A stretch of 64,000 nucleotides of DNA from Methanobacteriota archaeon (GTDB taxonomy: Archaea; Thermoplasmatota; SW-10-69-26; JACQPN01), in NCBI GenBank assembly GCA_016207515.1, contig JACQPN010000002.1:12350-76349 (forward strand). The letters run 5' to 3'. Shown here piece after piece: positions 2,979-46,232 of the stretch. The translations under genes were made by a program, and so were the position numbers. The notes under the pieces were generated by a model, which was not told the DNA's origin, made no database searches, and saw only the letters and a list, made by a program, of their open reading frames with translations. Numbering within the stretch: position 1 is the first letter of the stretch; each line of letters opens with the position of its first letter.

Positions 2979-3221
2979 ATGAAGCGCCGTTTCACGGTCG
3001 TGATTGAAAAAGATCCGGGCGGCGGCTATGTGGCCTCCGTCGCGGAACTTCCTGGTTGCCATACCCAGGGCGACACGCTCAAAGAACTCCGCGCCAACGT
3101 GAAAGAGGCGATAGAATTGTATCTTGAGAACGAGGACCTCGATGCGAAATTCCCCGAATTCGTGGGGATCGAGCGCGTCGCCGTAGCCGGCATCGACCGG
3201 CGAGGACGAAGCGCACGCTAG
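2979..3221 (+). CDS. HicB-like antitoxin / UPF0150 family protein
   Basis: 80 aa; FTVVIEKDPGGGYVASVAELPGCHTQGDTLKEL...EAIELYLE matches the HicB/UPF0150 RNase H-like fold signature. Confidence 0.7.
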   Translation: MKRRFTVVIEKDPGGGYVASVAELPGCHTQGDTLKELRANVKEAIELYLENEDLDAKFPEFVGIERVAVAGIDRRGRSAR

Positions 3222-3454
3222 TGCGCGTCGAGGTCACGGTGTGAGTGGGTTACGACCTCTACCGGCTCGTAGGGTTCTCCGAGTTCTTTCGGCCCTCGGC
3301 TTCGTCGAAATTGGTCCGCCGGCAGCCACATCAACTTGAGGCCGCCCTGCGGCCGGATGGTAGTGGTAGCGCCGTAAACGCGACCGACGTCAAGGGTTGA
3401 TCCAGGTCTCCCAATGGTCATCCGTATCTGTTCACCGGCGTTCCGGTAACTAGA

Positions 3455-7613: not shown

Positions 7614-7899
7614 GCGTTTTGTGCGTCAGGCCCATTGGTCCGACCAGGTCTAAAGCAGACGTTTTGAGAAAGGTCTTTCCACCGCGCGCCCCCTCGGCGC
7701 CTCCGTGGCGCAATGGCTATGGGCGGCCCTTCTCGTTTTCTTGATGGTCGCGCGGCCGGCTGGCCGGGCCCGAAAAGCGCGCGTACCGCCACGCAAGACG
7801 GTGAAGACCAAGCCGAGAAGGGCGAAGCGCGCCGCGTCCTCCCTCGTCCGGGGCGGGCATCGTGTCGTGGGCCCTAGGCGTGCCGGTGTCGCCCCACCG

Positions 7900-8403
7900 A
7901 TGAGCACCGACGACGATAGAGGGACGTCGGCGAAGCGCGGAACGCCACCAAGCGTCGAACGCAAGAATGCGGTGGACGAGGCGAAGCGGATCCGTGTGCC
8001 CGGACACCAGGCGGGCGAGGATGCCGCGGGTGAGCCGAGGCGGATCCGCGTGCCAGAAGCGATCCTTCGCAAGATGTACGTGGAGGGAAGCCTCGCGAAC
8101 GCCAGGCAATCCGTCGTCTTCAGTCTACGGAACCAGTTCTCGACGGCAACGATCGTTTCGTTCCCGCAGCTCTTGATCGATGGCGCGAGAGTCGCCGTTG
8201 CACGACTCTGCGTGAAGGTCGCGGCCAAATCGACGCTCGCGAAATCCGTCCGCGACTCGCAGCCGTTCGTCTTCGCCAAGAACGATGAGGCTGTCTTCTT
8301 GGTCGATACAAAGCGCCTCGCGGCGGGCGTACACTCCGTACAATTGACGGCGGACACGCGTGAGTGGGGGCGGCTTGTCGTGGAGTTCGAAGCGAGTATT
8401 TGA
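7900..8403 (+). CDS. hypothetical protein
   Basis: ORF 7705..8403; more protein-like than the overlapping antisense ORF 7650..8357 (Ser/Thr/Arg-rich); start uncertain (ATG 7900 chosen); contains an internal direct repeat (RIRVPGHQ / RIRVPEA). Confidence 0.4.
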   Translation: MSTDDDRGTSAKRGTPPSVERKNAVDEAKRIRVPGHQAGEDAAGEPRRIRVPEAILRKMYVEGSLANARQSVVFSLRNQFSTATIVSFPQLLIDGARVAVARLCVKVAAKSTLAKSVRDSQPFVFAKNDEAVFLVDTKRLAAGVHSVQLTADTREWGRLVVEFEASI

Positions 8404-31040: not shown

Positions 31041-32495
31041 TCAAAAGAGCGTCTTTTGCAACCTGTGCTTCTCCCCAGGTATCTCCACGGGGTACTCGCC
31101 CGTGAGACATCCGAGGCACAAGTCGCCATTGTCCATGCCGATGGACCTTACGAGACCTTCGACCGAAAGGTAGGCAAGCGAGTCGGCTCCGATGAACGCC
31201 GCTATCTCTTTTTCGCTCCTCGACGCGGCGATGAGTTGTTCGCGGGTCGGCATGTCGACGCCGAGATAGCAAGGCGACTTTATCGGAGGCGAGCCGATCC
31301 TAAGATGCACTTCCTTCGCACCCGCCTCACGTAAGAGCGTGACGATGCGTCGCGTCGTCGTGCCGCGCACGATCGAATCATCGACGAGCACGACGCGTTT
31401 TCCTTTGATGACAGAAGGCACGGGGTTGAGCTTCAACTTCACGCCGATGTCGCGCGCCTGCTGTTCCGGCATGATGAAGGTGCGGTGGATGTAACGGTTC
31501 TTCATCAGGCCCTCCATGAACGGGATGCCGCTCTTGCGGGCGAACCCCAGCGCGTGCGTGCGGCCGGAGTCCGGGACGGGAACGACCACGTCGGCCCGTG
31601 CCGGGGCCTCCTCTGCGAGGATCTCGCCCAAGCGGATGCGCACGTCGTGGACGTTCTTCCCGTCCATGACGCTGTCCGCGCGGGCGAAGTAGACGAACTC
31701 GAACTGGCAATGGGCCGTCGATTCGGCGGCTGTCCCGGGAAACGCCTTCAACCCCTCCTCCGAGATCTCCACGATCTCGCCCGGTTCCATGTCCCGCAGG
31801 AACTTCGCGGAGACAACGTCGAGTGCGACACTCTCGGAAGCTGCGACGAATCCGCCATCGGGAAGCTCCCCGATGCAAAGCGGCCGTATCGCGTGAGGGT
31901 CGCGCACCGCATAGACGCGGTCCTTGAACAGGATGATGAACGAGTAAGCACCCGAGAGCCGCTTCATGACGCTTCGGATCGCCCGAACGACGTTCCCCGT
32001 CTCCGACAATTCGTTCGCGATCATGCGGACCGCGACCTCCGAGTCGCTCGAAGTCTGGAACGCCCAACCTTTGGCTTTCAGTTCCTCGCGCAGTTTTTTC
32101 GAATTCGCGATGTCGCCGTTGTGGCCGAGCGCCAGTTCCCCGTGCGAGGTCGTGACCGTGAACGGTTGCGCGTTCTCCAACGCCGATGCCCCCGTGGTCG
32201 AATAACGGACGTGGCCGATCCCTACGTTCCCGTCGAGCGTTTGGAGCACTTCCGGAGTGAAGACGTTCTCGACGAGGCCCATCCCGCGGAAGGTCTGCGT
32301 GCGCCCGGGTCGTACGCCGGGCCCGCCGTTGGTCCTCTCCTCGCCGGCGGAGGACCCGTTGTGCACCGCGATGCCCGACGATTCCTGGCCACGGTGCTGA
32401 AGAGACCGTAGACCATAGAAGATGAGGAGCGAAACGGAGCCCGACTTCGAAGCGATTCCGAAGATGCCGCACTTGTCCTTGGCTTCGCCTGGCAC
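31041..32495 (-). CDS. purF: amidophosphoribosyltransferase
   Basis: 484 aa; N-terminal CGIFGI glutaminase nucleophile after a short propeptide, PRTase motif VVLVDDSIVRGTT. Confidence 0.92.
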   Translation of the reverse strand: MPGEAKDKCGIFGIASKSGSVSLLIFYGLRSLQHRGQESSGIAVHNGSSAGEERTNGGPGVRPGRTQTFRGMGLVENVFTPEVLQTLDGNVGIGHVRYSTTGASALENAQPFTVTTSHGELALGHNGDIANSKKLREELKAKGWAFQTSSDSEVAVRMIANELSETGNVVRAIRSVMKRLSGAYSFIILFKDRVYAVRDPHAIRPLCIGELPDGGFVAASESVALDVVSAKFLRDMEPGEIVEISEEGLKAFPGTAAESTAHCQFEFVYFARADSVMDGKNVHDVRIRLGEILAEEAPARADVVVPVPDSGRTHALGFARKSGIPFMEGLMKNRYIHRTFIMPEQQARDIGVKLKLNPVPSVIKGKRVVLVDDSIVRGTTTRRIVTLLREAGAKEVHLRIGSPPIKSPCYLGVDMPTREQLIAASRSEKEIAAFIGADSLAYLSVEGLVRSIGMDNGDLCLGCLTGEYPVEIPGEKHRLQKTLF

Positions 32496-32645
32496 TGGGT
32501 CCCATTATTCTGAAGGACGCCGCCTTTATACGGGTTTCGTAGGCGGGTCGCGGGTCGTGGGACCGACGCCCTCGAAGGCGGCCTGAGAAGCGCTGCCGGA
32601 CGCCTTTTCCGGGGGAAGGGTTCAAGTATCCACAGGGATACAGGC

Positions 32646-33494
32646 GTGAACCAAATGACCGACCGCGTTCTCTTCGCCGTAGCGGCAATGGCCATCGTCC
32701 TTTCGGGCACCGTGAGCGCCGGCACCGAAAAGGCGCCCGAGCTCGTGGACGCTGCCATGGACACGGCCCGGCCCGACGAATCGCAATCCACGGACATCAT
32801 CGCGGGCTGGATCGAGAAGGAGGAAGAGGCGTCGTTCACGACCGTCATCAAGGTCCAGACGCTCGACTTGAACCTCGCGGCTGTGACCGGTTTCTCATTC
32901 GCGTTCAAGTACCGCGGCCTCGACTACGCGACGTCGGCCTTCCTCATCCCGGGCTCGCCCCCCGACTTCTCCTACGGTCACTGGGACGAGGATGCGGGCT
33001 TCACCTACGATTCGAACGCGACCACAGGCACGGTCACCGCCGGGTCCCCCGGCTACGTACGCGTCGTGTTCAAGAAGGACCACTTCACGTCGGAGCCCCA
33101 CGGCAACGCCGCTGCGGTCGCCTACAAGGACCCGCCGACCATCGAGAAGATCGCGGTGACGACGATCGACGGCAAGGCCTTCACGCCTCTCATCCTGCTC
33201 TTCCTCGTGAACGTCGACCCCTTTAGCGTCGCGCCGGCCCTTAGCTCGCCTCCGCCGGCGCTTTACAATTCAGACTCCGCCACCGCCACGAAGAACTACG
33301 TGATGACGCTCGGGGTCCCCGACGCGCCCGTCGTCGAGCCCTTGCTGGCCATCGAGCCGTTGAACGCGTCTGGCCATACCGAGCCGCTCTCCGATGATGC
33401 GACGGCGCCGCCGGTCGCCAATACGCCGGGCCCAGAGGCCTGGATGCTCGCGGCGGCGCTATCGGCGGCCATTGTCATAAGGCGTCGCCGGTAG
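32646..33494 (+). CDS. secreted protein with C-terminal membrane anchor (PGF-CTERM-like sorting signal)
   Basis: N-terminal signal peptide; C-terminus TPGPEAWMLAAALSAAIVIRRRR (Pro-Gly motif, hydrophobic helix, Arg cluster). Confidence 0.6.
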   Translation: MNQMTDRVLFAVAAMAIVLSGTVSAGTEKAPELVDAAMDTARPDESQSTDIIAGWIEKEEEASFTTVIKVQTLDLNLAAVTGFSFAFKYRGLDYATSAFLIPGSPPDFSYGHWDEDAGFTYDSNATTGTVTAGSPGYVRVVFKKDHFTSEPHGNAAAVAYKDPPTIEKIAVTTIDGKAFTPLILLFLVNVDPFSVAPALSSPPPALYNSDSATATKNYVMTLGVPDAPVVEPLLAIEPLNASGHTEPLSDDATAPPVANTPGPEAWMLAAALSAAIVIRRRR

Positions 33495-33581
33495 AGCAGG
33501 CCGTCGTCCTTTCCTCGGCGGCCCCGCGCTCACTTTCGAACATCCCCCCTTAGCCTTAAGACGGGCCTTTAGGTTCCCATC

Positions 33582-34061
33582 TTGATGGCCATGGCCCTCA
33601 AGAAACCCGTCGGTGTGAACGTGATGCTTGGAGTCGAGAACGTCGAGAAGACCGCGCACTTCTGGGAAGAGAACTTCGGGGCGAAGATCCGCGACCAGAT
33701 GAAGGCCCCAGATGGGACCTGGGTCCACGCGGGAACGAAGTTCGGCGAGTCCTACATCATGTGGGCCACGATCTCGCAGCCCGGAAGCATGAAGAAGGAG
33801 GACTGGCAGGCGTGGTCGGCAAAGCCTCGTTACAACGGCGTCAACGTCTACGTGAACGTGAAGAACGTGACGAAAGTCTGGGAGACGGCGAAGGCGAATG
33901 GAGCAGAGATCCGCGAACCCCTCACGGACCAGTTCTGGGGAGATCGGAACTTCACGTGCGTCGACAACAACGGCATCCTGGTGACCTTTGCCGAGAAGGT
34001 GAAGAACGTGACCGCGAAGCAGATGGCGAAGGCGCTCAAGGAATCGGGCCGCCCGCAGTAA
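33582..34061 (+). CDS. VOC-family (glyoxalase/bleomycin-resistance fold) protein
   Basis: 159 aa; beta-alpha-beta-beta-beta module pattern, conserved H/E metal-ligand positions. Confidence 0.7.
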   Translation: MMAMALKKPVGVNVMLGVENVEKTAHFWEENFGAKIRDQMKAPDGTWVHAGTKFGESYIMWATISQPGSMKKEDWQAWSAKPRYNGVNVYVNVKNVTKVWETAKANGAEIREPLTDQFWGDRNFTCVDNNGILVTFAEKVKNVTAKQMAKALKESGRPQ

Positions 34062-34209
34062 GCGTTTGGTAATACTGGTCCAACCCTCCGCTCATGGCGT
34101 AATCGCGGGACATCGTCGATTGCGCCCTGAGGCCGGCGGTGAGCGTCCGCGCGCCGCATGTCTTCGCACGGCTGGTTCTGCAGGTTCTCGAGGCCCGGTG
34201 TCGTCTGGT

Positions 34210-34635
34210 TCATGCCTGTTTCTTGCGACCCTTGGTCGGACTGAACGAGATGACCTTGATGCCGAGCTTTCTTGCGGCCTGCAACTGCCTGTCATCAGCG
34301 GAGACAAGGGTTCCTCCGGTGGAGACGGCTGCCTCTAGGTACTCCGCGTCGTAGTACGTCACGCCGGTGGCGGCATCCCAGACGCGATCGTCGTCGGTGT
34401 TCAACGGAATCAGGTCGATTCCGAGGAAGACGGCGCGGTGAAGCTCCTTGGCCTCGGCGACCTTCAGGTCGCGACACTCTTTCTGTATGACCCGTCCGAG
34501 CTCGCTGTATGCGATGTGTGGAGCTTGAAGCGCCATGCCTTTCGCCGAGGTTTCGCTAAGCCAGGCCCGAAACTCCTCCGATCCCGCCTCATCGAGGAAC
34601 GATTTTGCCAAAGCGCTGGCATCCAAGACGAACAT
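34210..34635 (-). CDS. vapC: PIN-domain toxin VapC
   Basis: ORF 34210..34707; start MFVLDASALAKSFLDE (PIN acidic residues D5, E/D ~40, D ~100). Confidence 0.8.
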   Translation of the reverse strand: MFVLDASALAKSFLDEAGSEEFRAWLSETSAKGMALQAPHIAYSELGRVIQKECRDLKVAEAKELHRAVFLGIDLIPLNTDDDRVWDAATGVTYYDAEYLEAAVSTGGTLVSADDRQLQAARKLGIKVISFSPTKGRKKQA

Positions 34636-34636
34636 C

Positions 34637-34846
34637 CTAGTGCTCCTCGCGAGCTTCCCGTACGACGTCAGCCACGGGACGACTTGCGGGCCGCCGGTAC
34701 TTCGCAAGGGTGGCGTTGCGACGATCGATTCGGAGTCTTTCTGCGAGCTTCGTGAGGTCCTCCTTCACGGTCTCGGCGATCTTGACTCCCGCCTCGTCGA
34801 GCTCGTGCTGTAGCGCATCTGGAATACGCACGCTGATTACACCCAT
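34637..34846 (-). CDS. vapB: ribbon-helix-helix antitoxin VapB (CopG-like)
   Basis: 69 aa, MGVISVRIPDALQHELDE...; stop 1 nt from vapC start. Confidence 0.75.
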   Translation of the reverse strand: MGVISVRIPDALQHELDEAGVKIAETVKEDLTKLAERLRIDRRNATLAKYRRPASRPVADVVREAREEH

Positions 34847-35005
34847 GTGTTTACATGGTTGTAAGACAAGATAAAGTTTACTGCTGGTTCTTACGGCCCA
34901 GGAGGGAAGTTGGTTGCACGGCGTGGGCGCCTTCGCGACCGACGTGCGAACCCGCCGACACCGCCGGTTAGTTATTTATACTTCGTCAGCGCACGTATAC
35001 ATTGT

Positions 35006-35209
35006 ATGCCAGAAGACACGATGCTTCGCGTCCCAGTGGCGGTTCGCGAGCGCCTGCGACGCTACGGCGTGAAGGGCCAGACGTACGCCAACATCCTGAC
35101 GAACCTGATGGACGAGTTTGACCATCGAGAGTTCGTGAAGGAACAAATCGCTTTGTTGGATGAGGCGATCGAGGAGAAGCCGCGCCTAGTTAACCTTCGA
35201 GACCTCTGA
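35006..35209 (+). CDS. antitoxin (RelB/ParD-like) of RelE module
   Basis: ORF 34910..35209, start placed at ATG 35006 (MPEDTMLRVPVAVRERLRRYG...); stop overlaps the toxin start (ATGA). Confidence 0.6.
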   Translation: MPEDTMLRVPVAVRERLRRYGVKGQTYANILTNLMDEFDHREFVKEQIALLDEAIEEKPRLVNLRDL

Positions 35210-35475
35210 TGCCTTACCGGGTGATCCTCGGGCGGCGCGCCGAAAAGAACCTTCGCGCGCTACGTGCCGATGAACGGGCGCGAGTCAAGGACGCTCTCCT
35301 CGTGCTGGAGGAAGACCCGATCCACCCCAGGCCCGGGGCGGACATCAAGCGGCTCAAGGGCACAAGACGCCTCTACCGCGTGCGCGTAGGCCCGTGGAGA
35401 GCCATCTATGGCATTCACGATGGCGACGTAATTATCACGGACTTCTTCAGGAAGAAGCGCGGATACGACATCTGA
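35209..35475 (+). CDS. relE: RelE/ParE-family toxin
   Basis: 88 aa; YRVRVGPWRAIYGIHDGDVIITDFFRKKRGY matches the RelE core. Confidence 0.8.
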   Translation: MPYRVILGRRAEKNLRALRADERARVKDALLVLEEDPIHPRPGADIKRLKGTRRLYRVRVGPWRAIYGIHDGDVIITDFFRKKRGYDI

Positions 35476-35617
35476 TCTGTCCATGCAGACGATGCAGATC
35501 GTCTTGGGGCGGACGGCCGCGCACCCTTGAACGCGAGACGGTTTCCAGCGTCGAAAACCCGATCTGCAGCGAGAGAATCCGCAAGTTCTATCGTCCGTCT
35601 CGGGGTAAGCGGGAAAC

Positions 35618-36847
35618 ATGGATCGTTCCAGCGGCCGCGTCCAAGTCGGCCTCGCGTTCCTCATCGTGTTCGTCGCGGGCTGCCTCGGCCCGCCGCCGAC
35701 GGGCGATGACGACGACGATGGACGGGACGAAGACCCTTCAACGGACCGACCGGGCGTGGGCGACAACGACGCTTCCGAGCATTTTGCGTCCGATGATGAC
35801 GGGTCTAACGAGGAGGGCGGCGACGACGACCCCGACGCCGCGTTCGAACGCGTCGAATGGAACCGCCGCATCAATGCGTCGTTTGCTCCGGTCGACTGCC
35901 CGAGGCCGCCCCGGCGCGAGTACAATGACACGTACTACAAGGGCCCGCTCATCGACACGCACATGCACATCCCGCACCTTCCCGATTCCCCGATCGGCGA
36001 GCCCGTGCCCGACGAGAAGATGCACCCCATCGCCGGTGTCAACGTCCGCATGGGCGAGATCGCGTGCCTCCTCAAGTGGGAGGGGACCAAGAGCGCCGTA
36101 TCGTTCTTCCCGGTATTCCCTCACATCGACTGGCAATCCCTCGAAGTCGTGAACCGGACGATGTCGCTCTATCCCGACCTCTTCATCCCGTTCATCATGG
36201 CGCCAGCCGCGAACGACGACCCACCGACCGTTGACGAGGGGCCACTTCGCGGAATGCTTGAGGTACATCCAGGGCTCTTCCGCGGCTATGGGGAAATCGG
36301 TCTCTACTCCCGCTCCGAAGGCGGACGCGACTTGAGGCCGGACGACCCCATCCTCAAACGCGTCTATCTCGTCCTCCGCGAACACAAGCTCGTCGCCTAC
36401 CTCCATCCCGGCGACGGCCACGCAGCCTCACTCGACGCGGTCCTCACGGAGAACCCGGACCTCAACCTCATCGTCCACGGAGACCAGATCGCGCCCGCTA
36501 TCGGCGCGTTGATGGACGCACACGACAACGTGTTCTTCACCGCGAACGACCTCTACGGCGACCAGTACCTGCTTCACCAGCGCGAGAACGCGACGACGTT
36601 CCTCGAAAAGACGAAGGACTTCGGCCCAATGCTTAGAAAGGATTGGGACGACTGGAAAGCGATCATCGAAGCGCATCCCGACCAGTTCATGTGGGGCACG
36701 GATCGGGGCGGCGTCGCGGTGTGGACGTACGACCACGCGGTCGGCGACCGGCTCTCGGATTACGGGCGCGCTTTCATCGGAGGACTCGATCCGGCCGTGC
36801 AGGAGAGGTTCGCTTTCAAGAACGCCGAGAGGCTGTTTTCGCGGTAG
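35618..36847 (+). CDS. secreted lipoprotein, amidohydrolase-superfamily (TIM-barrel metal-dependent hydrolase) domain
   Basis: Signal peptide plus lipobox (FVAGC), acidic low-complexity linker, then metal-binding His motifs (DTHMHIPH, HPGDGH, IVHGDQ). Confidence 0.7.
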   Translation: MDRSSGRVQVGLAFLIVFVAGCLGPPPTGDDDDDGRDEDPSTDRPGVGDNDASEHFASDDDGSNEEGGDDDPDAAFERVEWNRRINASFAPVDCPRPPRREYNDTYYKGPLIDTHMHIPHLPDSPIGEPVPDEKMHPIAGVNVRMGEIACLLKWEGTKSAVSFFPVFPHIDWQSLEVVNRTMSLYPDLFIPFIMAPAANDDPPTVDEGPLRGMLEVHPGLFRGYGEIGLYSRSEGGRDLRPDDPILKRVYLVLREHKLVAYLHPGDGHAASLDAVLTENPDLNLIVHGDQIAPAIGALMDAHDNVFFTANDLYGDQYLLHQRENATTFLEKTKDFGPMLRKDWDDWKAIIEAHPDQFMWGTDRGGVAVWTYDHAVGDRLSDYGRAFIGGLDPAVQERFAFKNAERLFSR

Positions 36848-37038
36848 CCGTGCGACGAGCCGCCGCGGGTCTTGGGGCGCCGAGCGCCAACCCTCTTGGC
36901 GACGCATGCCCGAGGGCAAACGAATGGACGCGCTTCAACGCCTGTGCTATAAATACCTCTCCGTGCATCGAAACGAGTGACGTCCAACTCGCCGCCTGAC
37001 AACCGGTGCGGGGCGACGCATCGTGCCAAGCGGAGTAG

Positions 37039-38187
37039 TTGAATTTGGACCTCGCCTGGAACCCGCTCGGCGCCATCGGCATCGTGGTGGGCGTCCTCGC
37101 TTGCGCCATGGCGGCGCTCGTGTGGAAGGCGCGGGCCGACCGGGCCCAAAACCGCTGGCTCGCGGCCTACCTCTTCGGCAACGGCTTGTACTTCGTCGCC
37201 TACAACGGCCTCCGACTCTTCGCGACCGATCCCCGTGACGCCTACGCGCTCATGGCCTCAGGTTGGTCGGTGAATCTGCTGTCCGTCGGAGGATACTTTG
37301 CCTTCCTCTCTACGTTGGATTCCCCTCTCGTCTCTTGGATGCGAAGGTACCGGATCGTGTGGGCCGTGATGGGCGGCTCTGCCCTGGTCGCGGCATATGT
37401 CGTCGTCCAGCCGGGTGCTTGGTTCCCGGGCGTGCAGCCACTCGGTGGTTTTTCGGGATGGGGCGCAGTCTCCTCCCCGCTTAGAAACCTCGTCCTCCTG
37501 GTCCTCACGGGCCTCTTTATCTTTTCCGCAGCGCCGGCGATCGACGCTTGGCGCCGAGCGAAGACGCCGCTCCTACGTCGCCAAGGTTGGATCTTTGGCG
37601 CCACGTTCGCGACGACATCGCTCGGTTGGGCGGCCTTCATAATATGGTACCTGGCCTCGGGAACGGGCACATTCACGCCGTTTGTCGTGGTCGTCAATTT
37701 CCTGTGGCAGGCCCTGCTTTCGCTTGCCCTCTCCCTTGGCCTTGCGTACGGGATCCTGAAGACCCAACTTTTCGACGTCGACATCAAGCTCAAGTGGACG
37801 TTGCGAAGCGGCACGCTCGCGGGCGCCTTCTTGGGCGTTTTCTTCGTGGCAAGCGAGGCAGCGCAATCGGTACTCTCCGCACAACTCGGTCCCATTGTCG
37901 GGCTCGTCGCAACGGGTGCTCTCGTGTTCGCGTTGGCACCGCTCCAGCGCGCCGCGGACAGGATCGCGGACAAGGCCATGCCGCGCGTTTCGGACGACGC
38001 CGAGTACAGGACGGTGAGAAAGCGCGAGGTGTACGCCGCGGCCGTCGAGAGTGCTCTCGAAGAGGGCGACATACGCCCGAAGGAGCGCGGGATGCTCGCG
38101 ACACTTGCGGACCAGCTTGGGCTAGGTCCGAAGGAGATGCACGAGATCGAGGTTGAGGCGCGTTCGGAAAGAGCGCGGGTGGCGTAG
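37039..38187 (+). CDS. array member A: polytopic membrane protein (~9 TM) with conserved C-terminal module
   Basis: 382 aa, TTG start; seven N-terminal TM helices, then conserved TM hairpin (FFVASEAAQ...ALVFALAPL) and cytoplasmic helical tail. Confidence 0.75.
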   Translation: MNLDLAWNPLGAIGIVVGVLACAMAALVWKARADRAQNRWLAAYLFGNGLYFVAYNGLRLFATDPRDAYALMASGWSVNLLSVGGYFAFLSTLDSPLVSWMRRYRIVWAVMGGSALVAAYVVVQPGAWFPGVQPLGGFSGWGAVSSPLRNLVLLVLTGLFIFSAAPAIDAWRRAKTPLLRRQGWIFGATFATTSLGWAAFIIWYLASGTGTFTPFVVVVNFLWQALLSLALSLGLAYGILKTQLFDVDIKLKWTLRSGTLAGAFLGVFFVASEAAQSVLSAQLGPIVGLVATGALVFALAPLQRAADRIADKAMPRVSDDAEYRTVRKREVYAAAVESALEEGDIRPKERGMLATLADQLGLGPKEMHEIEVEARSERARVA

Positions 38188-38316
38188 ATGCCCCTCTCGC
38201 CGGGTTTCCTCGTCACGCAGGCGACTACCCTCCTTCTCGTCGTGCTGGGCGCGTTCGTCCTGACCGTGCGACCGCGCACGCGTGCGCCGGCTTTCCCGGT
38301 CACGGAGGCGGCCTGA
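38188..38316 (+). CDS. array fragment B1: 42-aa ORF carrying only the family N-terminal TM motif
   Basis: ATG immediately after A stop; LLLVVLGAFVLTVRPRTRAP matches the N-terminal LG...L[RK]PRT motif of C-G; likely gene remnant or split gene. Confidence 0.35.
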   Translation: MPLSPGFLVTQATTLLLVVLGAFVLTVRPRTRAPAFPVTEAA

Positions 38317-38832
38317 GTGCACTTGCTCGACGCCGTGGGGCTCACCGACTCCGTTTCGGTGCTAGTGTTCACTCTCCTGGGCCTTTGGGTCCTTTCGCTT
38401 CGCTGGCGTTCGGCCACGAACATCACGTTCGCCGTCTGCGCGATCGCTTTCTCGGCGGGCATAGTCCCGGTCAATCTTTTCACCGCCCGGACTCACTTGG
38501 ATCCCCCCATATCCGCCGCCGCGGACGTCGTCGCGAAGCGCGCCGTCTCGATCACGCGCGACGGCGATCCCGTCCCGTGCCCCATCCCGACGCTGCCTTG
38601 CGACGCAGCGCCGCGCGGCGCGCCGATCCTGCCCGACGACACCCGATACTCGCTCGTCATCGGCGACTACGTCGCGCTCGGCGGCGACGGATACGACAGG
38701 CTCCCCGACCTCGGTGCGAGCGGCGCGCTCGAAGCGGACGTGCTCATTGAGCACCTCGAGCGCCTCGGCACGGTCGAGCCGCGCGTCGACGGCCGCGTGT
38801 GGCACGTCGCGCGACTTCAGGGGGTGCCCTGA
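38317..38832 (+). pseudogene. array fragment B2: family-like N-terminal TM segment fused in frame to a 5'-nucleotidase C-terminal-domain-like tail
   Basis: GTG after B1 stop; N-terminal TM (LVFTLLGLWVLSLRWRS), C-terminal YSLVIGDYVALGGDGYDRL...VDGRVWHV resembles the 5'-nucleotidase C-terminal domain; no conserved family C-terminal module. Confidence 0.35.
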
Positions 38833-40073
38833 TGCACTTGCTGGGCGAGGCCTGGTTCTCGTGGGTCTCCTTCGTGGTCGCCGATGTGATCCTCGTTGCG
38901 CTCGGCATTCTCGTGCTCCGGCTCAAGCCGCGGACGCCGGCGAGCTGGGCTCTTGGCGTCTTCGCGACCGCCTGGGGAGCCAACTTCATCGTGGCGCTCG
39001 CGCCGTTCTTCTTCGACATCGACCTTTCGAGGCCAGGGTATCTGGAGGGTCAAACCCTTCTTCGCGTCGTCCTGAGAGCCATCTCCGCCGGCGGCCTCGT
39101 GGCGATGATGCTGACCTTCCCGCGGGCCCTGCCGCGAGCCGAGCGCCGCGCCCTCGTCGGGCCCGCGATCTTTGGCGCGGTCTGGGCGTTTGTGCTCATC
39201 GCCCCGCGATGGGCGATCCCACCGTGGGCGCTCCTCGACGTGGGAACCGCGATTGTCGGGTACGGGTTCGTCTGGGCGTACCTGCTGCTTCTCACGTCCC
39301 GGTGGCGGCGCGCGACCGACGCGGGCGAACGGCACCAGATCGTGCTCACGTTCGTGGCGCTCGCGCTGGGCGTCAGTTTCCAAGCGGGACAATACGCGGG
39401 AGGCGCGAGCCAGCTCGCTTCGTCAGGCGTCCTGACGTTCGTGACCCAGCTTGCCCCACCCGTCTGGCTTGCGGTCGTCTGGCTCCGGGGGGCCCACGGG
39501 GCGCAAGCGCGCGTCGAGCGGAATCTCGCCATCCTCCCGCTCGCGCTCGCGTTCGTGGGATTCCTCGTGGGGAGGAGGAGCCCCTACGATCCCTCGGGCC
39601 TCCTCGCCCTTGGCACCGTCGCGATCCTCACCTATGCGATCGTGCGTCACCAAGTCCTCGGCATCGACGTCAAGCTCCGCTTCGCCATCAGCAAGTCCAC
39701 GGTCGCGGCCGTGTTCATCGCGGTTTTCTTCGTCGCGAGCGAAGCGGCGCAGCAGTTCTTCGGCGAAGCGTTCCAATCCAATTACGTGGGCATCCTGGCG
39801 GCGGGTGCTCTCGTGTTCGCGATCGCGCCGTTGTCGCGCCTCGCGGACCGGATCGCGGAGAAGGCGGTGCCGGTTCCCACGGCACCTCCGGAGCCCACGG
39901 GGCTACCTTTTCGCGAAAAGCTCTACCGGGATGCAGCGCGCTACGCGCTCCGAGACGGCACGATGACACGCATCGAGGAGTTGCATCTTGCCCAGCTTGC
40001 CGCCGAGCTCGGGCTGCGCGCGGATCGGGCGGTCGAACTGCGCCATGAGATCGAGGAGGAGATGAGGGCGTGA
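38832..40073 (+). CDS. array member C: polytopic membrane protein with conserved C-terminal module
   Basis: ATG overlapping B2 stop (ATGA); module ISKSTVAAVFIAVFFVASEAAQQFFGEAFQSNYVGILAAGALVFAIAPLSRLADRIAEKAVP plus tail YRDAARYALRDGTMTRIEELHLAQLAAELGL. Confidence 0.8.
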   Translation: MHLLGEAWFSWVSFVVADVILVALGILVLRLKPRTPASWALGVFATAWGANFIVALAPFFFDIDLSRPGYLEGQTLLRVVLRAISAGGLVAMMLTFPRALPRAERRALVGPAIFGAVWAFVLIAPRWAIPPWALLDVGTAIVGYGFVWAYLLLLTSRWRRATDAGERHQIVLTFVALALGVSFQAGQYAGGASQLASSGVLTFVTQLAPPVWLAVVWLRGAHGAQARVERNLAILPLALAFVGFLVGRRSPYDPSGLLALGTVAILTYAIVRHQVLGIDVKLRFAISKSTVAAVFIAVFFVASEAAQQFFGEAFQSNYVGILAAGALVFAIAPLSRLADRIAEKAVPVPTAPPEPTGLPFREKLYRDAARYALRDGTMTRIEELHLAQLAAELGLRADRAVELRHEIEEEMRA

Positions 40074-41356
40074 TCGTTTTCCACACGGAGTGGGACGCGA
40101 TCGTGAACGCGATTACGGCCGCGATCCTCGCGGGGTTCGGAGCCTGGATCTGGGCGCTTCGGCCGCGGACCCGACTCACCCGTATGCTCGCGCTCTTTGC
40201 CGTCGCGCACGGCGTTCTCTACACGTACATCAACTTGGTCGAGGTCCTCCCTGTGGGAGGCCCCGCTTGGATCGCGGATACGCTCCTCCGGGGCGCGCTC
40301 TTCGGGGCCGCCGCGTGGGGTCTGCTCGCGATGGGACGCGAAGTCCTGCGGCCTCTCGGCCCCGGGAGCGATCGTCTCTGGAAGGTCGCCGTCGCGACCG
40401 TCGGGATTCTCGCGGTCGTAATCACGGGCCCGGTGCTTTTTGGCCTCCCCGATTCCTCCCCTCTCGCCTGGGTCGCGATCGCCGCCGAGCTTTTCGGCCT
40501 CGCAACGTTCATTCTCGGATTCACCGCCCTTCCGGTCGTGTTTGTGTGGCTCTACCGGCAGCCCCTCGGGGAGGACGTTGAGCGGACGAGGCGCAACGCC
40601 ATCGTGATGAGCAACGCGCTCGTCCTCTGGCCGGCGCTCTATGGGATTGAGGCCGCGATCGGGGGCGGTATCGGCGGATACCTAGTTCTCATCGGTGTGG
40701 TCGCGCTCGGGCTCCTCTGGCTGGCCAACATCGGAGTCGATCCCCGGACAGCCCGCGAGGCTCGCGACGCGGCGCTTCTCGCCTTCGCCCTGCTCCTCAT
40801 CGGAACCGTCGACAGACTGATCCTCTCCGACGCGCTCGGCTACTCTCGCGCAGAGGGCCCGTTCTATGGAATCGCGCGCCTCCTGACGGTCGTCGCGCTC
40901 TCCTACGCCGTCCTGAAGCACTCCGTGCTCGGCTTCGACGTGAACCTACGCTTTGCAATCAGCAAGTCCACCATCGCCGCCGTCTTCGTCGCCGTCTTCT
41001 TCGTCGCGAGCGAAGCGGCGCAGCAGTTCTTCGGTGAAGCGTTCCAGTCGAGCTACGTGGGCATCCTGACGGCGGGTGCGCTCGTGTTCGCGATCGCGCC
41101 GTTGTCGCGGCTTGCGGACAGGATCGCTGAGAAGGCGGTGCCGATCGCGGAGGGCCGTCCCGCCGCCACGACGGCGAAGGAGGAAGCGTACAAACGCGCG
41201 TTGCGCATCGCGCTGCGGGACCGCAAGCTCACGCGCGAGGAGGACATCCACGTGCACGAGCTCGCGGAGCACCTCGGCATCGGCGCAGGCCGAGCGATGG
41301 CATTGCGTGTAGAGATTGAACGCGAATTGGCCGCATCGACCGGAGGCGGGACTTGA
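40070..41356 (+). CDS. array member D: polytopic membrane protein with conserved C-terminal module
   Basis: GTG overlapping C stop (GTGA); C-terminal module nearly identical to C and E2 at protein and DNA level. Confidence 0.8.
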   Translation: MIVFHTEWDAIVNAITAAILAGFGAWIWALRPRTRLTRMLALFAVAHGVLYTYINLVEVLPVGGPAWIADTLLRGALFGAAAWGLLAMGREVLRPLGPGSDRLWKVAVATVGILAVVITGPVLFGLPDSSPLAWVAIAAELFGLATFILGFTALPVVFVWLYRQPLGEDVERTRRNAIVMSNALVLWPALYGIEAAIGGGIGGYLVLIGVVALGLLWLANIGVDPRTAREARDAALLAFALLLIGTVDRLILSDALGYSRAEGPFYGIARLLTVVALSYAVLKHSVLGFDVNLRFAISKSTIAAVFVAVFFVASEAAQQFFGEAFQSSYVGILTAGALVFAIAPLSRLADRIAEKAVPIAEGRPAATTAKEEAYKRALRIALRDRKLTREEDIHVHELAEHLGIGAGRAMALRVEIERELAASTGGGT

Positions 41357-41595
41357 CGATTCCGCTCGGCCGGATCCTCAACCTCGCCGGGAGCTCGGTG
41401 ATTGTGCTGCTCGGGCTCGCCGTCGCATTCCTTGGCCGAGGACGAGGTCCAGACCTTGGAGTGACTCGGTTCTCCATCGGCATCGGCGGGCTCGCTCTCG
41501 CGAAGCGCCACATGCGCGACCTTGTGGCCACCTGGGCGGGAGAGGACGCAACTGGTCGCGAAGCGGCGCCCGACTTGGAGGCGCGGTCCCCGTGA
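41353..41595 (+). CDS. array fragment E1: 80-aa ORF with family N-terminal TM motif
   Basis: TTG overlapping D stop; LAGSSVIVLLGLAVAFLGRGRG matches the family N-terminus; ends at TGA overlapping the GTG of E2. Confidence 0.4.
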   Translation: MTIPLGRILNLAGSSVIVLLGLAVAFLGRGRGPDLGVTRFSIGIGGLALAKRHMRDLVATWAGEDATGREAAPDLEARSP

Positions 41596-42932
41596 ATCTG
41601 CTCTCCGGGGCCCTCGTGCCCGCCTACGCCGGGACCCTCACAAACCTGCTCCTCGCTGCGGCTCTCCTCAGGTGGGGCCCAAGGCGGGGGGCATCGGTCT
41701 GGTTCGTCGCTTTCCTGGTCGCGGACGGCGTTGGCCTGGCGCTCAACGCAATCGAGAACCACGTCTTCCAGACCTTCGACGCCACCACGTCGAGCGCGTC
41801 AGAGATCGAAGCGACACGGGCGCTACTCACGGGGCTCGATGTCGCCGTGGGCGTTCTGCTCGTCTCTGCCCTGTTCCTGATCGTTTTCGCAACGATCGAA
41901 TTCTTGGGGCGCGCCCCGCGATGGCTGGCACCGGCGGTCCTCGCGACCGCGAGCACGGCGGCGCTCTGGGGGATTCTCGACCCTCCCGCAGGATACTTCC
42001 TCCGCGAGGGCCGCCTCATACACGTCGTCGACTCCTCCTATTTCTTCCTCACAACGCTTCCTGCCTTCGCAAGCCAAGGCGTCGCGCTTCTCGTGCTCGC
42101 GCGGCGACCAGCCGGCGATCCCAGCTCACCCACGCGCCGCTCTCACCTCCTCCTTGGCATCGGTCTCCTCGTGTATCCTCTTCATCGTGGCGCCTATCTT
42201 GTGGTGGACTACTTCCTCGACCCGCTGTCTGTAGCGCGAGTAACTGCCTCCAATCGGTTCGTCCTGCTCGGCGAGCTGGCGACCGCCGTGTTCCTCCTCT
42301 TCGCCGCCTACCTTGCCATCATGCGGCTTGCACGCACACATCCCGAGCACGCGGGCCTCGTTCTCGCGGCCGGCGTGGGCCTCGGCTCCGGGATACTGCG
42401 TGCCCTGACGGATGCGCTCCCGTCCTACTTCTATTTCGGCGTCGCGAACCTCGTGCTGCCGCTCGTCGCTACGTACGCGCTGCTCCGGCACAACCTGTTC
42501 GGTCTCGATTTCAGGGTTCGGTGGGCGATCTCGAAGTCCACGATCGCGGCGGTCTTCATCGCCGTCTTCTTTGTGGCGAGCGAGGCGGCGCAGCAGTTCT
42601 TCGGCGAAGCGTTCCAATCCAATTACGTTGGCATCCTGGCGGCGGGTGCTCTTGTGTTCGCGATCGCACCGTTGTCGCGGCTTGCGGACCGGCTCGCTGA
42701 GAAGGCGGTGCCGGTGGCCGCCGGAACCGGGCCCGTCGAGGCGAGCGCGTCCGACACGCGCGGAGCCGACGCGTACCGACACGCGGTGCGCTTGGCGCTT
42801 CGCGACCGGCGCCTCACGCCCGGTGAAGAGGTCGCTTTGGCGCACGTCGCGCAGGGTCTCGGACTCACGCCTGTTGAGGCCATTCGGCTCCGCCACGAGG
42901 TCGAGGCGGAGACCGGGAAGGAGGTGCGCTAA
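41592..42932 (+). CDS. array member E2: polytopic membrane protein with conserved C-terminal module
   Basis: In-frame part of ORF 41316..42932 starting at GTG 41592; C-terminal module identical over long stretches to C and D. Confidence 0.75.
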   Translation: MNLLSGALVPAYAGTLTNLLLAAALLRWGPRRGASVWFVAFLVADGVGLALNAIENHVFQTFDATTSSASEIEATRALLTGLDVAVGVLLVSALFLIVFATIEFLGRAPRWLAPAVLATASTAALWGILDPPAGYFLREGRLIHVVDSSYFFLTTLPAFASQGVALLVLARRPAGDPSSPTRRSHLLLGIGLLVYPLHRGAYLVVDYFLDPLSVARVTASNRFVLLGELATAVFLLFAAYLAIMRLARTHPEHAGLVLAAGVGLGSGILRALTDALPSYFYFGVANLVLPLVATYALLRHNLFGLDFRVRWAISKSTIAAVFIAVFFVASEAAQQFFGEAFQSNYVGILAAGALVFAIAPLSRLADRLAEKAVPVAAGTGPVEASASDTRGADAYRHAVRLALRDRRLTPGEEVALAHVAQGLGLTPVEAIRLRHEVEAETGKEVR

Positions 42933-42990
42933 ACTGGCTCTCGACGCGCGGTTCGTAATCACCGCAGGAAGCGGCGCGCTATGGGGCCTC

Positions 42991-44166
42991 ATGGGTGTCG
43001 TGATCCTCGCACTCGGCAGGAGCCGACGGGAGAACGTGGCGCTGGGGGCCCTCGCCCTATCGTTTGGTGCGATGTTCGTGTCGAACAACCTCGCCTTCGA
43101 GCCCGGAGCTGACGCGCTCCCAGTCATGTGGGGCTCGGCCCTCTTGGCCGTTGTCGCCGGTCTCGCCGCCCTCGCCGTGGCATGGACGACAGAGGGCCTC
43201 CCACGCGCGCCGGTCGTCGTCGCGGGAGCCGTCGGGGCCGCTTGGCAGCTCCTCGTGCCGATGGGACCCGTGTACGCGGCGGTGAACGCGGCGCGCTTCC
43301 CGCAGCCCGTGGCGGCGGCGTTCTTCACGAACGTCGCGTCTCCGCTTTTCGTCATCGCGTTGGCGCTCCTCATCGGGCTCCTTGCCGCCTTCGCCCTCGC
43401 CCCGAGGAGACTCGCGATGGGTGATCCGCGCCGTCCGCCGCGAAGGCTTCTGATGTACGCGTTCGGCCTCTACCTCGCGTACTCGATGGGCGCCAACGTG
43501 GTCGCGTACGACTTGAGCGGCTATGTCGTACTCTTCCCACTCGTCGTCGCACTTGCGGTGGCGCTGCTCGTCGCTGGCGCCGCGCCGGGCGGGCTGCCCG
43601 AACGTGACGGGGCGCTCGTCATCCTCGCGGCGGGCCTCGCCGGCGCGATCTCCGAGACCTGGGGAGGGGCGACCACGTCGGGCCTTGGCGTCGGCATCCT
43701 CCGCATCGTCGGCGTTGCGGTCCTTGCGTACTCCGTGTTCCGCTACGACCTCCTCGGCGTGCCGCTCCCGCGTATCGCCGAACACCGCGGCAGCCTTGCG
43801 ATGGCCTCGCTGGCCTCGCTCTTCATCGTCGCGCAGATCGCGGAGAACTACCTCAGCGCGGAGTACGGCCTCTTGATGGGTGGCGTGGTGGCGGGCGCGC
43901 TCCTCTTCGCCGCGAACCCCATACAACGGGCGATGGAGAGGACGACCGCTCCGGTCGGGCCCCATCGTGCTCCGGCGACGGTCGAGCGCCGCGAGGAGAG
44001 CGAGCGTGCCTACAGGGTGGCGTTACGCCGCTTCCTCGTTGACGGGGATATCAGCGCGGAGGAGGAGATCGCCTTGGCCCACCTTGCGGATGAGGCGGGC
44101 GTGACGGTGCGGCGAACAATCGAACTCCGCCACGAGGTCGAGCGCGAGTTGGGGAGGCGGGGCTGA
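42991..44166 (+). CDS. array member F: polytopic membrane protein with conserved C-terminal module (start uncertain)
   Basis: First in-frame ATG after E2 stop is 42991; homology to G begins at CTG 42934 (LALDARFVITAGSGALWGL vs VLDLSAASLVRAGSGVLFL), so the start may be non-canonical or lost. Confidence 0.7.
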   Translation: MGVVILALGRSRRENVALGALALSFGAMFVSNNLAFEPGADALPVMWGSALLAVVAGLAALAVAWTTEGLPRAPVVVAGAVGAAWQLLVPMGPVYAAVNAARFPQPVAAAFFTNVASPLFVIALALLIGLLAAFALAPRRLAMGDPRRPPRRLLMYAFGLYLAYSMGANVVAYDLSGYVVLFPLVVALAVALLVAGAAPGGLPERDGALVILAAGLAGAISETWGGATTSGLGVGILRIVGVAVLAYSVFRYDLLGVPLPRIAEHRGSLAMASLASLFIVAQIAENYLSAEYGLLMGGVVAGALLFAANPIQRAMERTTAPVGPHRAPATVERREESERAYRVALRRFLVDGDISAEEEIALAHLADEAGVTVRRTIELRHEVERELGRRG

Positions 44167-45417
44167 TTGGTTCTCGACCTCAGCGCGGCTTCGCTCGTTC
44201 GCGCGGGAAGCGGTGTACTGTTTCTCCTTGTCGGGCTCGCGATGATCGGCCTCGGTCGTCGGAAGCGCGAGAACCTGGCCGTCGGTGTGGCGGCAGTCGC
44301 GTTCGGCCTTGCTTTCGTCGTCAACAACATCGATCCGTCAGGCTCGGTCGTCGCGCAGATCGTGCTTGCCCTGGTTTGCGCCGCCGCGCTCGCCGTGCCG
44401 GTGGCTTCCTCGAAAAGGGCCGCCGCGTTCACGGCATTTGTCGCGCTGTCGCTTGTCGGACTCCTCGCGCTATCGACGCCAGCCCAAGTCGTCGGCTTCG
44501 CGGGAGTTCCCATCCCACCTGAGGCTTGGACGGGTTATTACCAGTCCCTCTTCGGCTACCTCCCAATGGTGGCGGCGGTCCTTGGGTACGCTCTGATGCA
44601 GGCGCTGCGATGCAGTAGCGAGTCGGACGAGTGCAGCGCCCGGGCATCAGCGCTTCTTGTCGCCGGGTGGGGGATCTATCCTGCCTTCCTCACGGGCGGA
44701 CAGGTTGCCATCGTTGCGACGCTTCGGTTCGGGCTGACGCCTCCCGGGCTCGCGACCACGGGCGTCCTTGCCCTCGCCGTCGCGGTCATCGTGGCGATGC
44801 TCCTCTACTCGACGCGCCGCACGAAGAGAGCCCGTAATGTCGCGTGGCTTCTCCTGGCATGCGAACTGGCCGGGATGGTGGATCAGGGCTTGGGCGGGAC
44901 CTATGTCACTCCATGGGTCGGTGTCGCGCGCTCGATTGGTGCGGTGATGATTGCGGTGGCGGTCTTTCGCGAGGCGGCACTAGGTTTTGAACTCGGTCTT
45001 CCGACGATCCGCCGCGGAACGACGGCGACGGTGGTTCTCGCGGGCTTCTTCATCGTCGCCCAGATCGCGCAGAACTTCTTGAGTGATGAGTACGGGCTGG
45101 TGATGGGGGGCGTGGTCGCGGGAGCGCTGCTTTTCGCGGCGAACCCCATCCAGCGCGCGATCGAGAGGGACTGGGCCGACCGTGCGCAAGCCACCACATC
45201 AGCGGCGTTTCCCATGGCAAGGGGGGCGCCGGCCGCCGCGACGGCGAGCAAGGAGGAGGCGTACCGCAACGCGCTGCGTATCGCGCTACGTGACCGCGTC
45301 CTCACGGAAGACGAGGAAGTCCAACTCGCGCATCTTTCCGACGAATTGGGCCTCACGCATAGGCGGGCAAGAGAGATCCGAAACGAGGTGCAGCGCGAGG
45401 CCGGGGCGCGGGAGTAA
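44167..45417 (+). CDS. array member G: polytopic membrane protein with conserved C-terminal module
   Basis: TTG right after F stop; C-terminal module FFIVAQIAQNFLSDEYGLVMGGVVAGALLFAANPIQRAIER plus tail EEAYRNALRIALRDRVLTEDEEVQLAHLSDELGL. Confidence 0.8.
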   Translation: MVLDLSAASLVRAGSGVLFLLVGLAMIGLGRRKRENLAVGVAAVAFGLAFVVNNIDPSGSVVAQIVLALVCAAALAVPVASSKRAAAFTAFVALSLVGLLALSTPAQVVGFAGVPIPPEAWTGYYQSLFGYLPMVAAVLGYALMQALRCSSESDECSARASALLVAGWGIYPAFLTGGQVAIVATLRFGLTPPGLATTGVLALAVAVIVAMLLYSTRRTKRARNVAWLLLACELAGMVDQGLGGTYVTPWVGVARSIGAVMIAVAVFREAALGFELGLPTIRRGTTATVVLAGFFIVAQIAQNFLSDEYGLVMGGVVAGALLFAANPIQRAIERDWADRAQATTSAAFPMARGAPAAATASKEEAYRNALRIALRDRVLTEDEEVQLAHLSDELGLTHRRAREIRNEVQREAGARE

Positions 45418-45680: not shown

Positions 45681-46232
45681 ATGCCCACCAATCTTCCGGA
45701 CGACTGGCGAAAGAGGCGCAAGGAAGGCGACAAGGACCCCTTCTTCGAGATGTTCGGCGACATGGACGCTGAATTCGAGCGCATGCGCGTCTACATGAAC
45801 AAGATGATGGAGGACGCGATGAAATCGCCCGGAATGAAGCTGGGCGAGCCGTACGTCTACGGTTTCAGCCTCAAAGTAGGCCCCGACGGAAAGCCGCGCA
45901 TCCAGGAGTTCGGGAACACGAAGCCCTTGGCGACGGCACCGGAGGAGGCGGGCCGCGAACCGCTCACCGACGTCATCGAGGACGAAAAGACCGTCTCGGC
46001 CACGTTCGAGATCCCCGGCGTCGAAAAAGACGAGATCCAACTCCACGTCACGGAGGACAAGTTGACGATACGCGTGAACACGCCCAAGCGGAAGTACCAC
46101 AAGGAAGCGGACCTACCGGCGCGAGTGAAGCCCGAGACGACGGAGGCGACGTACAACAACGGAGTCCTCGACGTAGTGATCCAAAAGGCGGCGGAGAAGG
46201 CGCCGGCGGGAAAACGCGTGCAGATTAAGTGA
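45681..46232 (+). CDS. small heat shock protein (Hsp20/alpha-crystallin family)
   Basis: 183 aa; alpha-crystallin domain (TVSATFEIPGVEKDEIQLHVTEDKLTIRVN ... ATYNNGVLDVVIQK); TATA-like elements 20-40 nt upstream. Confidence 0.9.
   Translation: MPTNLPDDWRKRRKEGDKDPFFEMFGDMDAEFERMRVYMNKMMEDAMKSPGMKLGEPYVYGFSLKVGPDGKPRIQEFGNTKPLATAPEEAGREPLTDVIEDEKTVSATFEIPGVEKDEIQLHVTEDKLTIRVNTPKRKYHKEADLPARVKPETTEATYNNGVLDVVIQKAAEKAPAGKRVQIK

Follow-up and report, generated by a model that had tools for sequence, protein, structure and literature searches.

Among the tandem membrane-protein genes of an archaeal genome, one short open reading frame raises the question of how a piece of a 5'-nucleotidase came to lie there, and what it is attached to. 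This reading frame, here called B2 (38317-38832, + strand), begins with GTG, codes for 171 amino acids and appears at NCBI as HY556_00765, a hypothetical protein encoded on a 337,851-bp contig of a MAG labelled 'Euryarchaeota archaeon'. It was studied within a stretch of 64 kb (referred to below as the window), whose positions are used throughout unless another contig is named. A preliminary description of this DNA had compared the tail of B2 to the C-terminal domain of 5'-nucleotidases, and the peptide quoted there is indeed present in the frame of the ORF. Our analysis leads to the view, to which we assign a probability of roughly 85%, that the remnant derives from a lipoprotein 5'-nucleotidase gene by a deletion that ran across two adjacent genes and fused it to a paralog of the array.

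B2 belongs to a head-to-tail series on the + strand, composed of an amidohydrolase lipoprotein gene (35618-36847, PF04909), the array gene g1, a short ORF named frag1, B2 itself, the array genes g3-g7 and an Hsp20 gene (45681-46229, PF00011). The first full-length member, g1 (37039-38187; 380-382 aa, HY556_00760), is located 3' of the amidohydrolase gene. It is followed by frag1 (38188-38316), B2, g3 (38832-40073, 413 aa), g4 (40070-41356), g5 (ending at 42932, with a likely GTG start at 41592), g6 (ending at 44166) and g7 (44167-45417). The array genes g1 and g3-g7 code for paralogous membrane proteins of the multi-pass type, which share a conserved C-terminal core, and no Pfam or NCBIfam model matches this family. 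The genes g1, frag1, B2 and g3 are packed with 0-nt spacers or a 1-nt overlap. A Shine-Dalgarno-like GGAGG, read from the sequence (38304-38308, + strand), stands 8 nt 5' of the B2 GTG, and GGAGG-like elements likewise precede most array genes. At the other end of B2, a purine-rich GGGGG(TG) followed by TGATG (38820-38834, + strand) makes the B2 stop (38830-38832) overlap the g3 ATG (38832-38834), and the translation-initiation region of g3 thereby sits within the nucleotidase remnant. The GC content of B2 by codon position (0.73/0.50/0.86) resembles that of the adjacent genes.

Several further features of this array and its surroundings were observed. The C-terminal ~50 residues of the array genes (37039-45417) carry a cytoplasmic tail motif, AYRxAxRxALRDRxLTxxEExxLAxLAxxLGL..., which is similar to a helical repeat found in Tic110 (PDB 4bm5, profile E=3e-4) and bears a weak likeness to TerB (2ou3, E=0.65). 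In g6, the family N-terminus (LALDARFVITAGSG...) follows the g5 stop with no ATG, GTG or TTG there (42930-43000), and the first canonical in-frame start of this gene, ATG 42991, would cost most of the first helix. At least two further family members, HY556_09515 and HY556_09520 (36-40% identical to g1), are neighbours on another contig of this MAG, 194 kb long; thus, there is more than one cluster of the family per genome. Just 5' of the amidohydrolase gene, two toxin-antitoxin-like pairs occupy positions 34210-35475, according to Pfam marks taken from the gene table of the Logan contig L005. The first, on the - strand, has a PIN-domain gene at 34210-34707 and its small partner at 34637-34846; the second has a ParE-like toxin gene (35209-35475, + strand) preceded by a small ORF that ends at 35209.

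The first half of the question concerns the N-terminal part of B2. A family profile covering the N-terminal 95 residues of 12 full-length array-family members, stubs excluded, was run against the 927 six-frame ORFs of the window. It matched B2 residues 6-73 with E=2e-9 (33.5 bits), while the best unrelated ORF reached E=2. The segment 38317-38537 (+ strand, codons 1-74), which has two predicted transmembrane helices and a loop, is therefore an N-terminal stub of an array-family paralog, as had been proposed for the upstream part of the ORF. It carries the family N-terminal module of TM1, basic loop (R-x-R) and TM2, and is fused in frame to the nucleotidase remnant. Since residues 6-73 fit the family N-terminal profile, no unexplained filler sequence remains in B2. 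This ORF is a clean two-piece in-frame chimera, made of a paralog N-terminal stub and a nucleotidase tail.

Such stubs are not confined to B2. The 42-codon frag1 (38188-38316, + strand) is a second family N-terminal stub, located between g1 and B2; its residues 3-33 match the N-terminal profile with E=3e-7, and in blastp it is matched best by the N-terminus of gene f458 on the related contig L001. It begins right after the g1 stop and stands in the same frame as B2, with a single TGA between them. A third N-terminal stub, an 80-aa ORF (41353-41595, profile E=7e-4), takes up the space from g4 to the likely start of g5. Together, the frag1, B2 and 41353-41595 stubs make truncated N-termini a recurrent feature of this array. 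On a separate point, the last ~21 nt of frag1 and the start of B2 resemble the junction between nucleotidase end and g3 start in the relative L002, described below, at 16 of 21 nt. This likeness has a local score of 32, with shuffled sequences averaging 21 +/- 2.5 and reaching at most 34; it could be the trace of a second deleted nucleotidase copy, or only a conserved GGAGG-stop-start context, a similar form of which recurs at most array genes.

The second half of the question concerns the tail. Curated models gave modest values for it: Pfam PF02872 matched the segment with E=0.1-0.24 and 11.9-13.1 bits, under its cut-off of 23.6 bits and only at model positions 132-155 of 158, and the NCBIfam UshA model matched with E=0.0025. 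The profile search that the preliminary description had proposed thus yields a match, although one that stays below threshold, and rejecting the nucleotidase origin for want of a significant profile hit, as was also suggested there, would wrongly discard the finding. A phmmer search against the PDB returned 31 matches, 28 of which are 5'-nucleotidases aligned at their last ~65 residues (best E=0.0015), including those of snake venom, human CD73, Thermus and E. coli UshA. The most informative result came from an exhaustive search of 1.84 billion representative proteins with the translated stretch 38500-38829, in which the 533-aa 5'-nucleotidase P0002 was found with E=1.4e-22 and 55% identity. 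The query aligned to residues 438-532 of P0002, its extreme C-terminus. Of some 40 further matches, most were to the C-termini of nucleotidases and a few to repeat proteins of low complexity. P0002 and the other tested matches bear PF02872 at E-values from 1e-13 to 1e-75 (1e-31 in P0002 itself), and several also carry the metallophosphatase domain PF00149.

In the reverse direction, tblastn of P0002 against the window produced a sole match at 38536-38820 (E=4e-25); no other nucleotidase part was found in any of the six frames of the 64 kb, and this includes the metallophosphatase N-domain, whose absence had been noted before. The segment 38538-38832 is thereby confirmed as homologous to the extreme C-terminus of 5'-nucleotidases of the UshA/CD73 type. 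Judged from these comparisons, the similarity lies far beyond chance once close relatives are used, while curated profiles support it only weakly. Of the boundaries given earlier, 38560-38832, the end stands, and the start has to be moved, as homology begins at 38538, 22 nt further 5'.

A different origin of the tail would be the C-terminal domain of an array member that was internally deleted, as in d165 on L001, and then diverged, with the GGDGY resemblance arising by chance. B2 residues 62-74 (PISAAADVVAKRAV) do look similar to the family motif PLSRLADRIAEKAV (PLxRxADRIAxKAV), MAFFT set the tail under the family C-terminus, tblastn of g3 reached E=0.018 in a 750-nt database, and a 19-nt repeat (D3) is present at 38517-38535. 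However, the family C-terminal profile scored B2 at -0.8 bits (E=52), as compared to 199-224 bits on six full-length members, and DNA local alignment scores fell within the shuffle null. On the same values, a derivation of residues 62-74 from the family motif was rejected, and B2 is without the family C-terminal core (FFVASEAAQ...GALVFA.AP..R) and the Tic110/TerB-like helical tail. With the nucleotidase homology being overwhelming, we regard the chance of a family origin for the tail as negligible.

An intact form of the nucleotidase gene became apparent in a close relative. A homolog search with P0002 recovered P0043, a protein of 538 aa that is 61% identical to P0002 and is encoded on L002, a 2.7 kb Logan contig (SRR33230358). 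P0043 has a lipoprotein signal (a signal peptide and the lipobox LASGC), PF00149 (22.5 bits against a cut-off of 21.5) and a complete PF02872 domain (E=1e-27). On this contig, the C-terminus of an array member is followed by the intact nucleotidase gene and then by a gene whose product begins MHLLREAWF..., which is the ortholog of g3. By blastn, L002 1533-2703 is collinear with window positions 38538-39705 at 84% identity over 1172 nt. The amino-acid identity is 80% over the 97 codons of the B2 tail against P0043, and 78% over 241 codons of g3 against its ortholog. The TGATG overlap of nucleotidase stop and g3 start is identical in L002 (GGGAGGCGTCCTGATG), where it ends an intact gene. The remnant (38538-38832, + strand; B2 codons 75-171 and the TGA stop) corresponds to P0043 codons 441-538 and is its positional ortholog. 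It retains the last third of the PF02872 domain, i.e., residues 441-497 out of an envelope that spans residues 326-497 in P0043, together with a C-terminal extension of ~40 residues. The synteny comparison with relatives that the preliminary description had proposed therefore bears out its view of a relic of a nucleotidase gene, as L002 retains an intact 5'-nucleotidase exactly where the tail sits, 5' of the g3 ortholog.

A more distant relative than L002 shows a related arrangement. P0002 is encoded on the 9.8 kb contig L001, directly after 7-8 array-family genes, some of which are truncated. In both relatives, the nucleotidase gene (L001 7999-9600 and L002 211-1827) abuts array genes, its start being separated from the preceding stop by 0-2 nt, and the array and the nucleotidase apparently share a transcript. 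L001 also contains decayed family members at 2981-3738 and 7838-7996; c87 and h52 are C-terminal tails only, and in d165 an internal deletion has joined the two N-terminal helices to the C-terminal core.

Beyond these contigs, the combination was not encountered. Within 10 kb of the family genes at 39 GTDB loci, which belong almost without exception to MAGs of the Thermoplasmatota type, there is no nucleotidase, and none of 80 JGI metagenome nucleotidase loci, all at no more than ~53% identity, has array genes nearby; neither scan yielded a further close relative. The association of nucleotidase and array is thus lineage-specific. DNA pattern scans of GTDB genomes and JGI metagenomes for the stretch coding for GDYVALGGDGYD gave zero matches. 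The homologs of P0002 include none from this MAG that would be a close intact ortholog, the scores dropping from 692 bits for P0043 to 475 bits for the next homolog. Orthologs of g1 (58-59% identity; L045 and L046) lie on contigs that are too short or non-syntenic and do not reveal the interval between g1 and the nucleotidase. Another Thermoplasmatota nucleotidase, P0076 (L003 and L004), was tried as a guide to synteny and proved uninformative, its context (ribosomal proteins, RecQ) being unrelated. In a word-indexed protein search with the whole ORF, the 90% cluster of B2 contained one member among 5.8 billion clusters, namely B2 itself. That search missed P0043 although the protein is in the database and 80% identical over 97 residues, so a negative result there is no evidence of absence for short segments.

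The same relatives bear on the mechanism put forward in the preliminary description, namely that a pre-existing stand-alone nucleotidase gene was split or overwritten when the paralog array inserted into it or expanded over it. Array sequence does flank the remnant on both sides, several stubs attest to turnover of the array, and the association is lineage-specific (found in 0 of the 39 GTDB and 0 of the 80 JGI loci). In L002, however, an intact nucleotidase already lies between two array genes, and in L001 it directly follows the family genes. Furthermore, the 5' half of the nucleotidase is absent from the window, and what borders the remnant on the left is an array gene cut short, not one that was inserted whole. 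Insertion or expansion of the array is consequently a very unlikely account of this locus, and this part of the earlier proposal is not upheld.

The point at which the two pieces meet can be placed precisely. Homology to L002 starts abruptly at 38538, at nucleotidase codon 441, and the 100 nt to the left of this position show random-level identity to L002, which sets the breakpoint at 38537/38538. In a repeat-rich array, such a junction might also be an assembly chimera of mis-joined reads. Near-identical stretches occur in g3, g4 and g5, and L005, a Logan contig (SRR12113385) produced by an independent assembler, ends exactly where such a stretch begins. The junction itself, though, lies outside the repeats, with the DNA similarity of 38470-38545 to all members within the shuffle null, and the reading frame is kept across it. 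L005 is moreover 100% identical to window positions 31358-39755 over 8398 nt, including both stubs and the junction, although both junction-carrying assemblies probably stem from the same reads. The identity of L005 and the position of the junction outside repeated sequence argue against a chimera specific to one assembler, and we consider an artefact highly improbable.

Built on the directly observed tail homology, orthologous position, breakpoint and two-piece composition, the deletion model would run as follows. The ancestor would have carried the nucleotidase gene within a tandem array of membrane-protein paralogs, directly 5' of g3. One illegitimate deletion would then have begun at about codon 74 of an array paralog lying upstream and ended at nucleotidase codon 440. 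A single event over two genes is suggested, as one junction cuts short both of them, the 5' four fifths of the nucleotidase are missing from the window, and the gene of the relative is intact between array genes. The size of the deletion would be ~2.4 kb if the truncated paralog, whose identity is likewise inferred, was the immediate neighbour; this estimate is indirect, since the L002 contig begins inside the gene 5' of the nucleotidase and so lacks the N-terminal part of that gene. The C-terminus of this L002 gene finds its best window match in g5, at 72%, as compared to 84% for orthologous DNA; a match at the level of paralogs only fits the loss of an L002-type upstream gene in the deletion. 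The event would have removed the signal peptide and lipobox, all of the metallophosphatase domain and the first two thirds of the domain that binds the substrate. It would have left an in-frame chimera of 74 codons of the paralog N-terminus and 97 of the 538 nucleotidase codons. That the tail is still there is probably due to the deletion being recent; a further possible reason is that the tail contains the ribosome-binding region and the stop and start overlap that g3 may use for coupling. Truncated members are common in these arrays, as exemplified by frag1 and the third stub of the window, and by c87, d165 and h52 in L001.

The remaining question is whether the fused product may still do anything. 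In enzymes of this family, two domains flank the active site, an N-terminal one that binds metal and a C-terminal one that binds the substrate. CD73 stacks the adenine between F417 and F500 and uses N390 and D506 to hold the ribose (PMC12586806). According to the alignment from the phmmer search against the PDB, the equivalents of F500 and D506 are kept in B2 as Y118 and D124, whereas those of N390 and F417 are deleted, with homology starting at ortholog residue 441. As all but the Y118 and D124 equivalents is missing, we infer that B2 cannot be a nucleotidase and is without that function.

Against the reading as a decaying remnant stands the openness of the ORF: the tail has no frameshift and no internal stop over its 97 codons, and its dN/dS against L002 is 0.40, no higher than the 0.43 of the functional neighbour g3, which gives no sign of relaxed constraint. 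When amino-acid changes in the tail were polarised with P0002 as outgroup, 7 proved to be derived in the window and 2 in L002 (p=0.09); those on the window branch include the loss of a conserved D-M-F after GGDG[YF]. These values fit a fairly recent deletion with incipient decay.

Part of the same evidence may be read in favour of a function, either as a chimera in which a two-helix anchor would display the nucleotidase tail outside the cell, or as a translated leader feeding ribosomes to the g3 start. The ORF is open and in frame, with its GGAGG 8 nt before the GTG and its TGATG overlap with g3, the GC content by codon position is gene-like, the dN/dS of the tail is not elevated, and the two retained residues, Y118 and D124, correspond to residues with defined roles in CD73. 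Nevertheless, just one third of the substrate-binding domain is left, the N390 and F417 equivalents and the whole catalytic domain are missing, and the chimera is unique to this population. In addition, 7 of the 9 polarisable changes, including the loss of the conserved D-M-F, lie on the window branch, and an in-frame junction has a one-in-three chance of arising anyway. A functional chimera or leader is therefore distinctly unlikely. That B2 is being kept open and translated, whether for the coupling of ribosomes to the overlapping g3 start or for a small new role at the cell surface, would be unlikely as well. If its translation were needed, deletions in the array would be filtered by the need to keep the head-to-tail packing of ORFs.

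The remnant can be set against known systems. Its closest counterpart is P0043, to which the last 97 codons are 84% identical in nucleotides and 80% in amino acids. The two have a subfamily-specific insert, C-P-x-P-x-L-P-C-D-A-A-P-R-G, in common, and both lead into g3 through the same TGATG. P0043 differs in having its full 538 residues, while the window holds codons 441-538 only, on a foreign N-terminus. The likeness to the UshA/CD73 5'-nucleotidases covers their last ~65 residues and includes the motif [FY]-x-A-x-G-G-D-G-[FY], which holds the adenine-stacking aromatic residue and the ribose-binding Asp (F500 and D506 of CD73; PMC12586806). In contrast to these enzymes, B2 is without the catalytic dimetal domain and the first two thirds of the substrate-binding domain, and its Pfam match stays under the gathering threshold; its tail is a derivative of the family and not a member in the functional sense. 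A third comparison is offered by the truncated paralogs (c87, d165, h52, frag1 and 41353-41595), which are likewise deletion products in tight arrays and form short open ORFs abutting their neighbours. Those, however, consist of family sequence only, and B2 is the sole case in which a family gene is joined to a non-family gene. As an object, B2 is of a well-known kind, a truncated gene remnant in a chimeric ORF, and it will not surprise a specialist.

For annotation, HY556_00765 is better described as a chimeric remnant, composed of a paralog N-terminal stub and a 5'-nucleotidase C-terminal fragment, than as a hypothetical protein. The case also holds a lesson of method, since a sub-threshold match to a curated profile was real, and could be proved only via lineage-specific relatives and synteny. 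As regards the organisms themselves, in this narrow lineage a lipoprotein nucleotidase gene resides inside an operon-like array, and the population represented by the window has probably lost this extracellular nucleotidase. The locus thereby documents the turnover of such arrays in Thermoplasmatota-like archaea, in which illegitimate deletions would leave behind short stubs that are still open.
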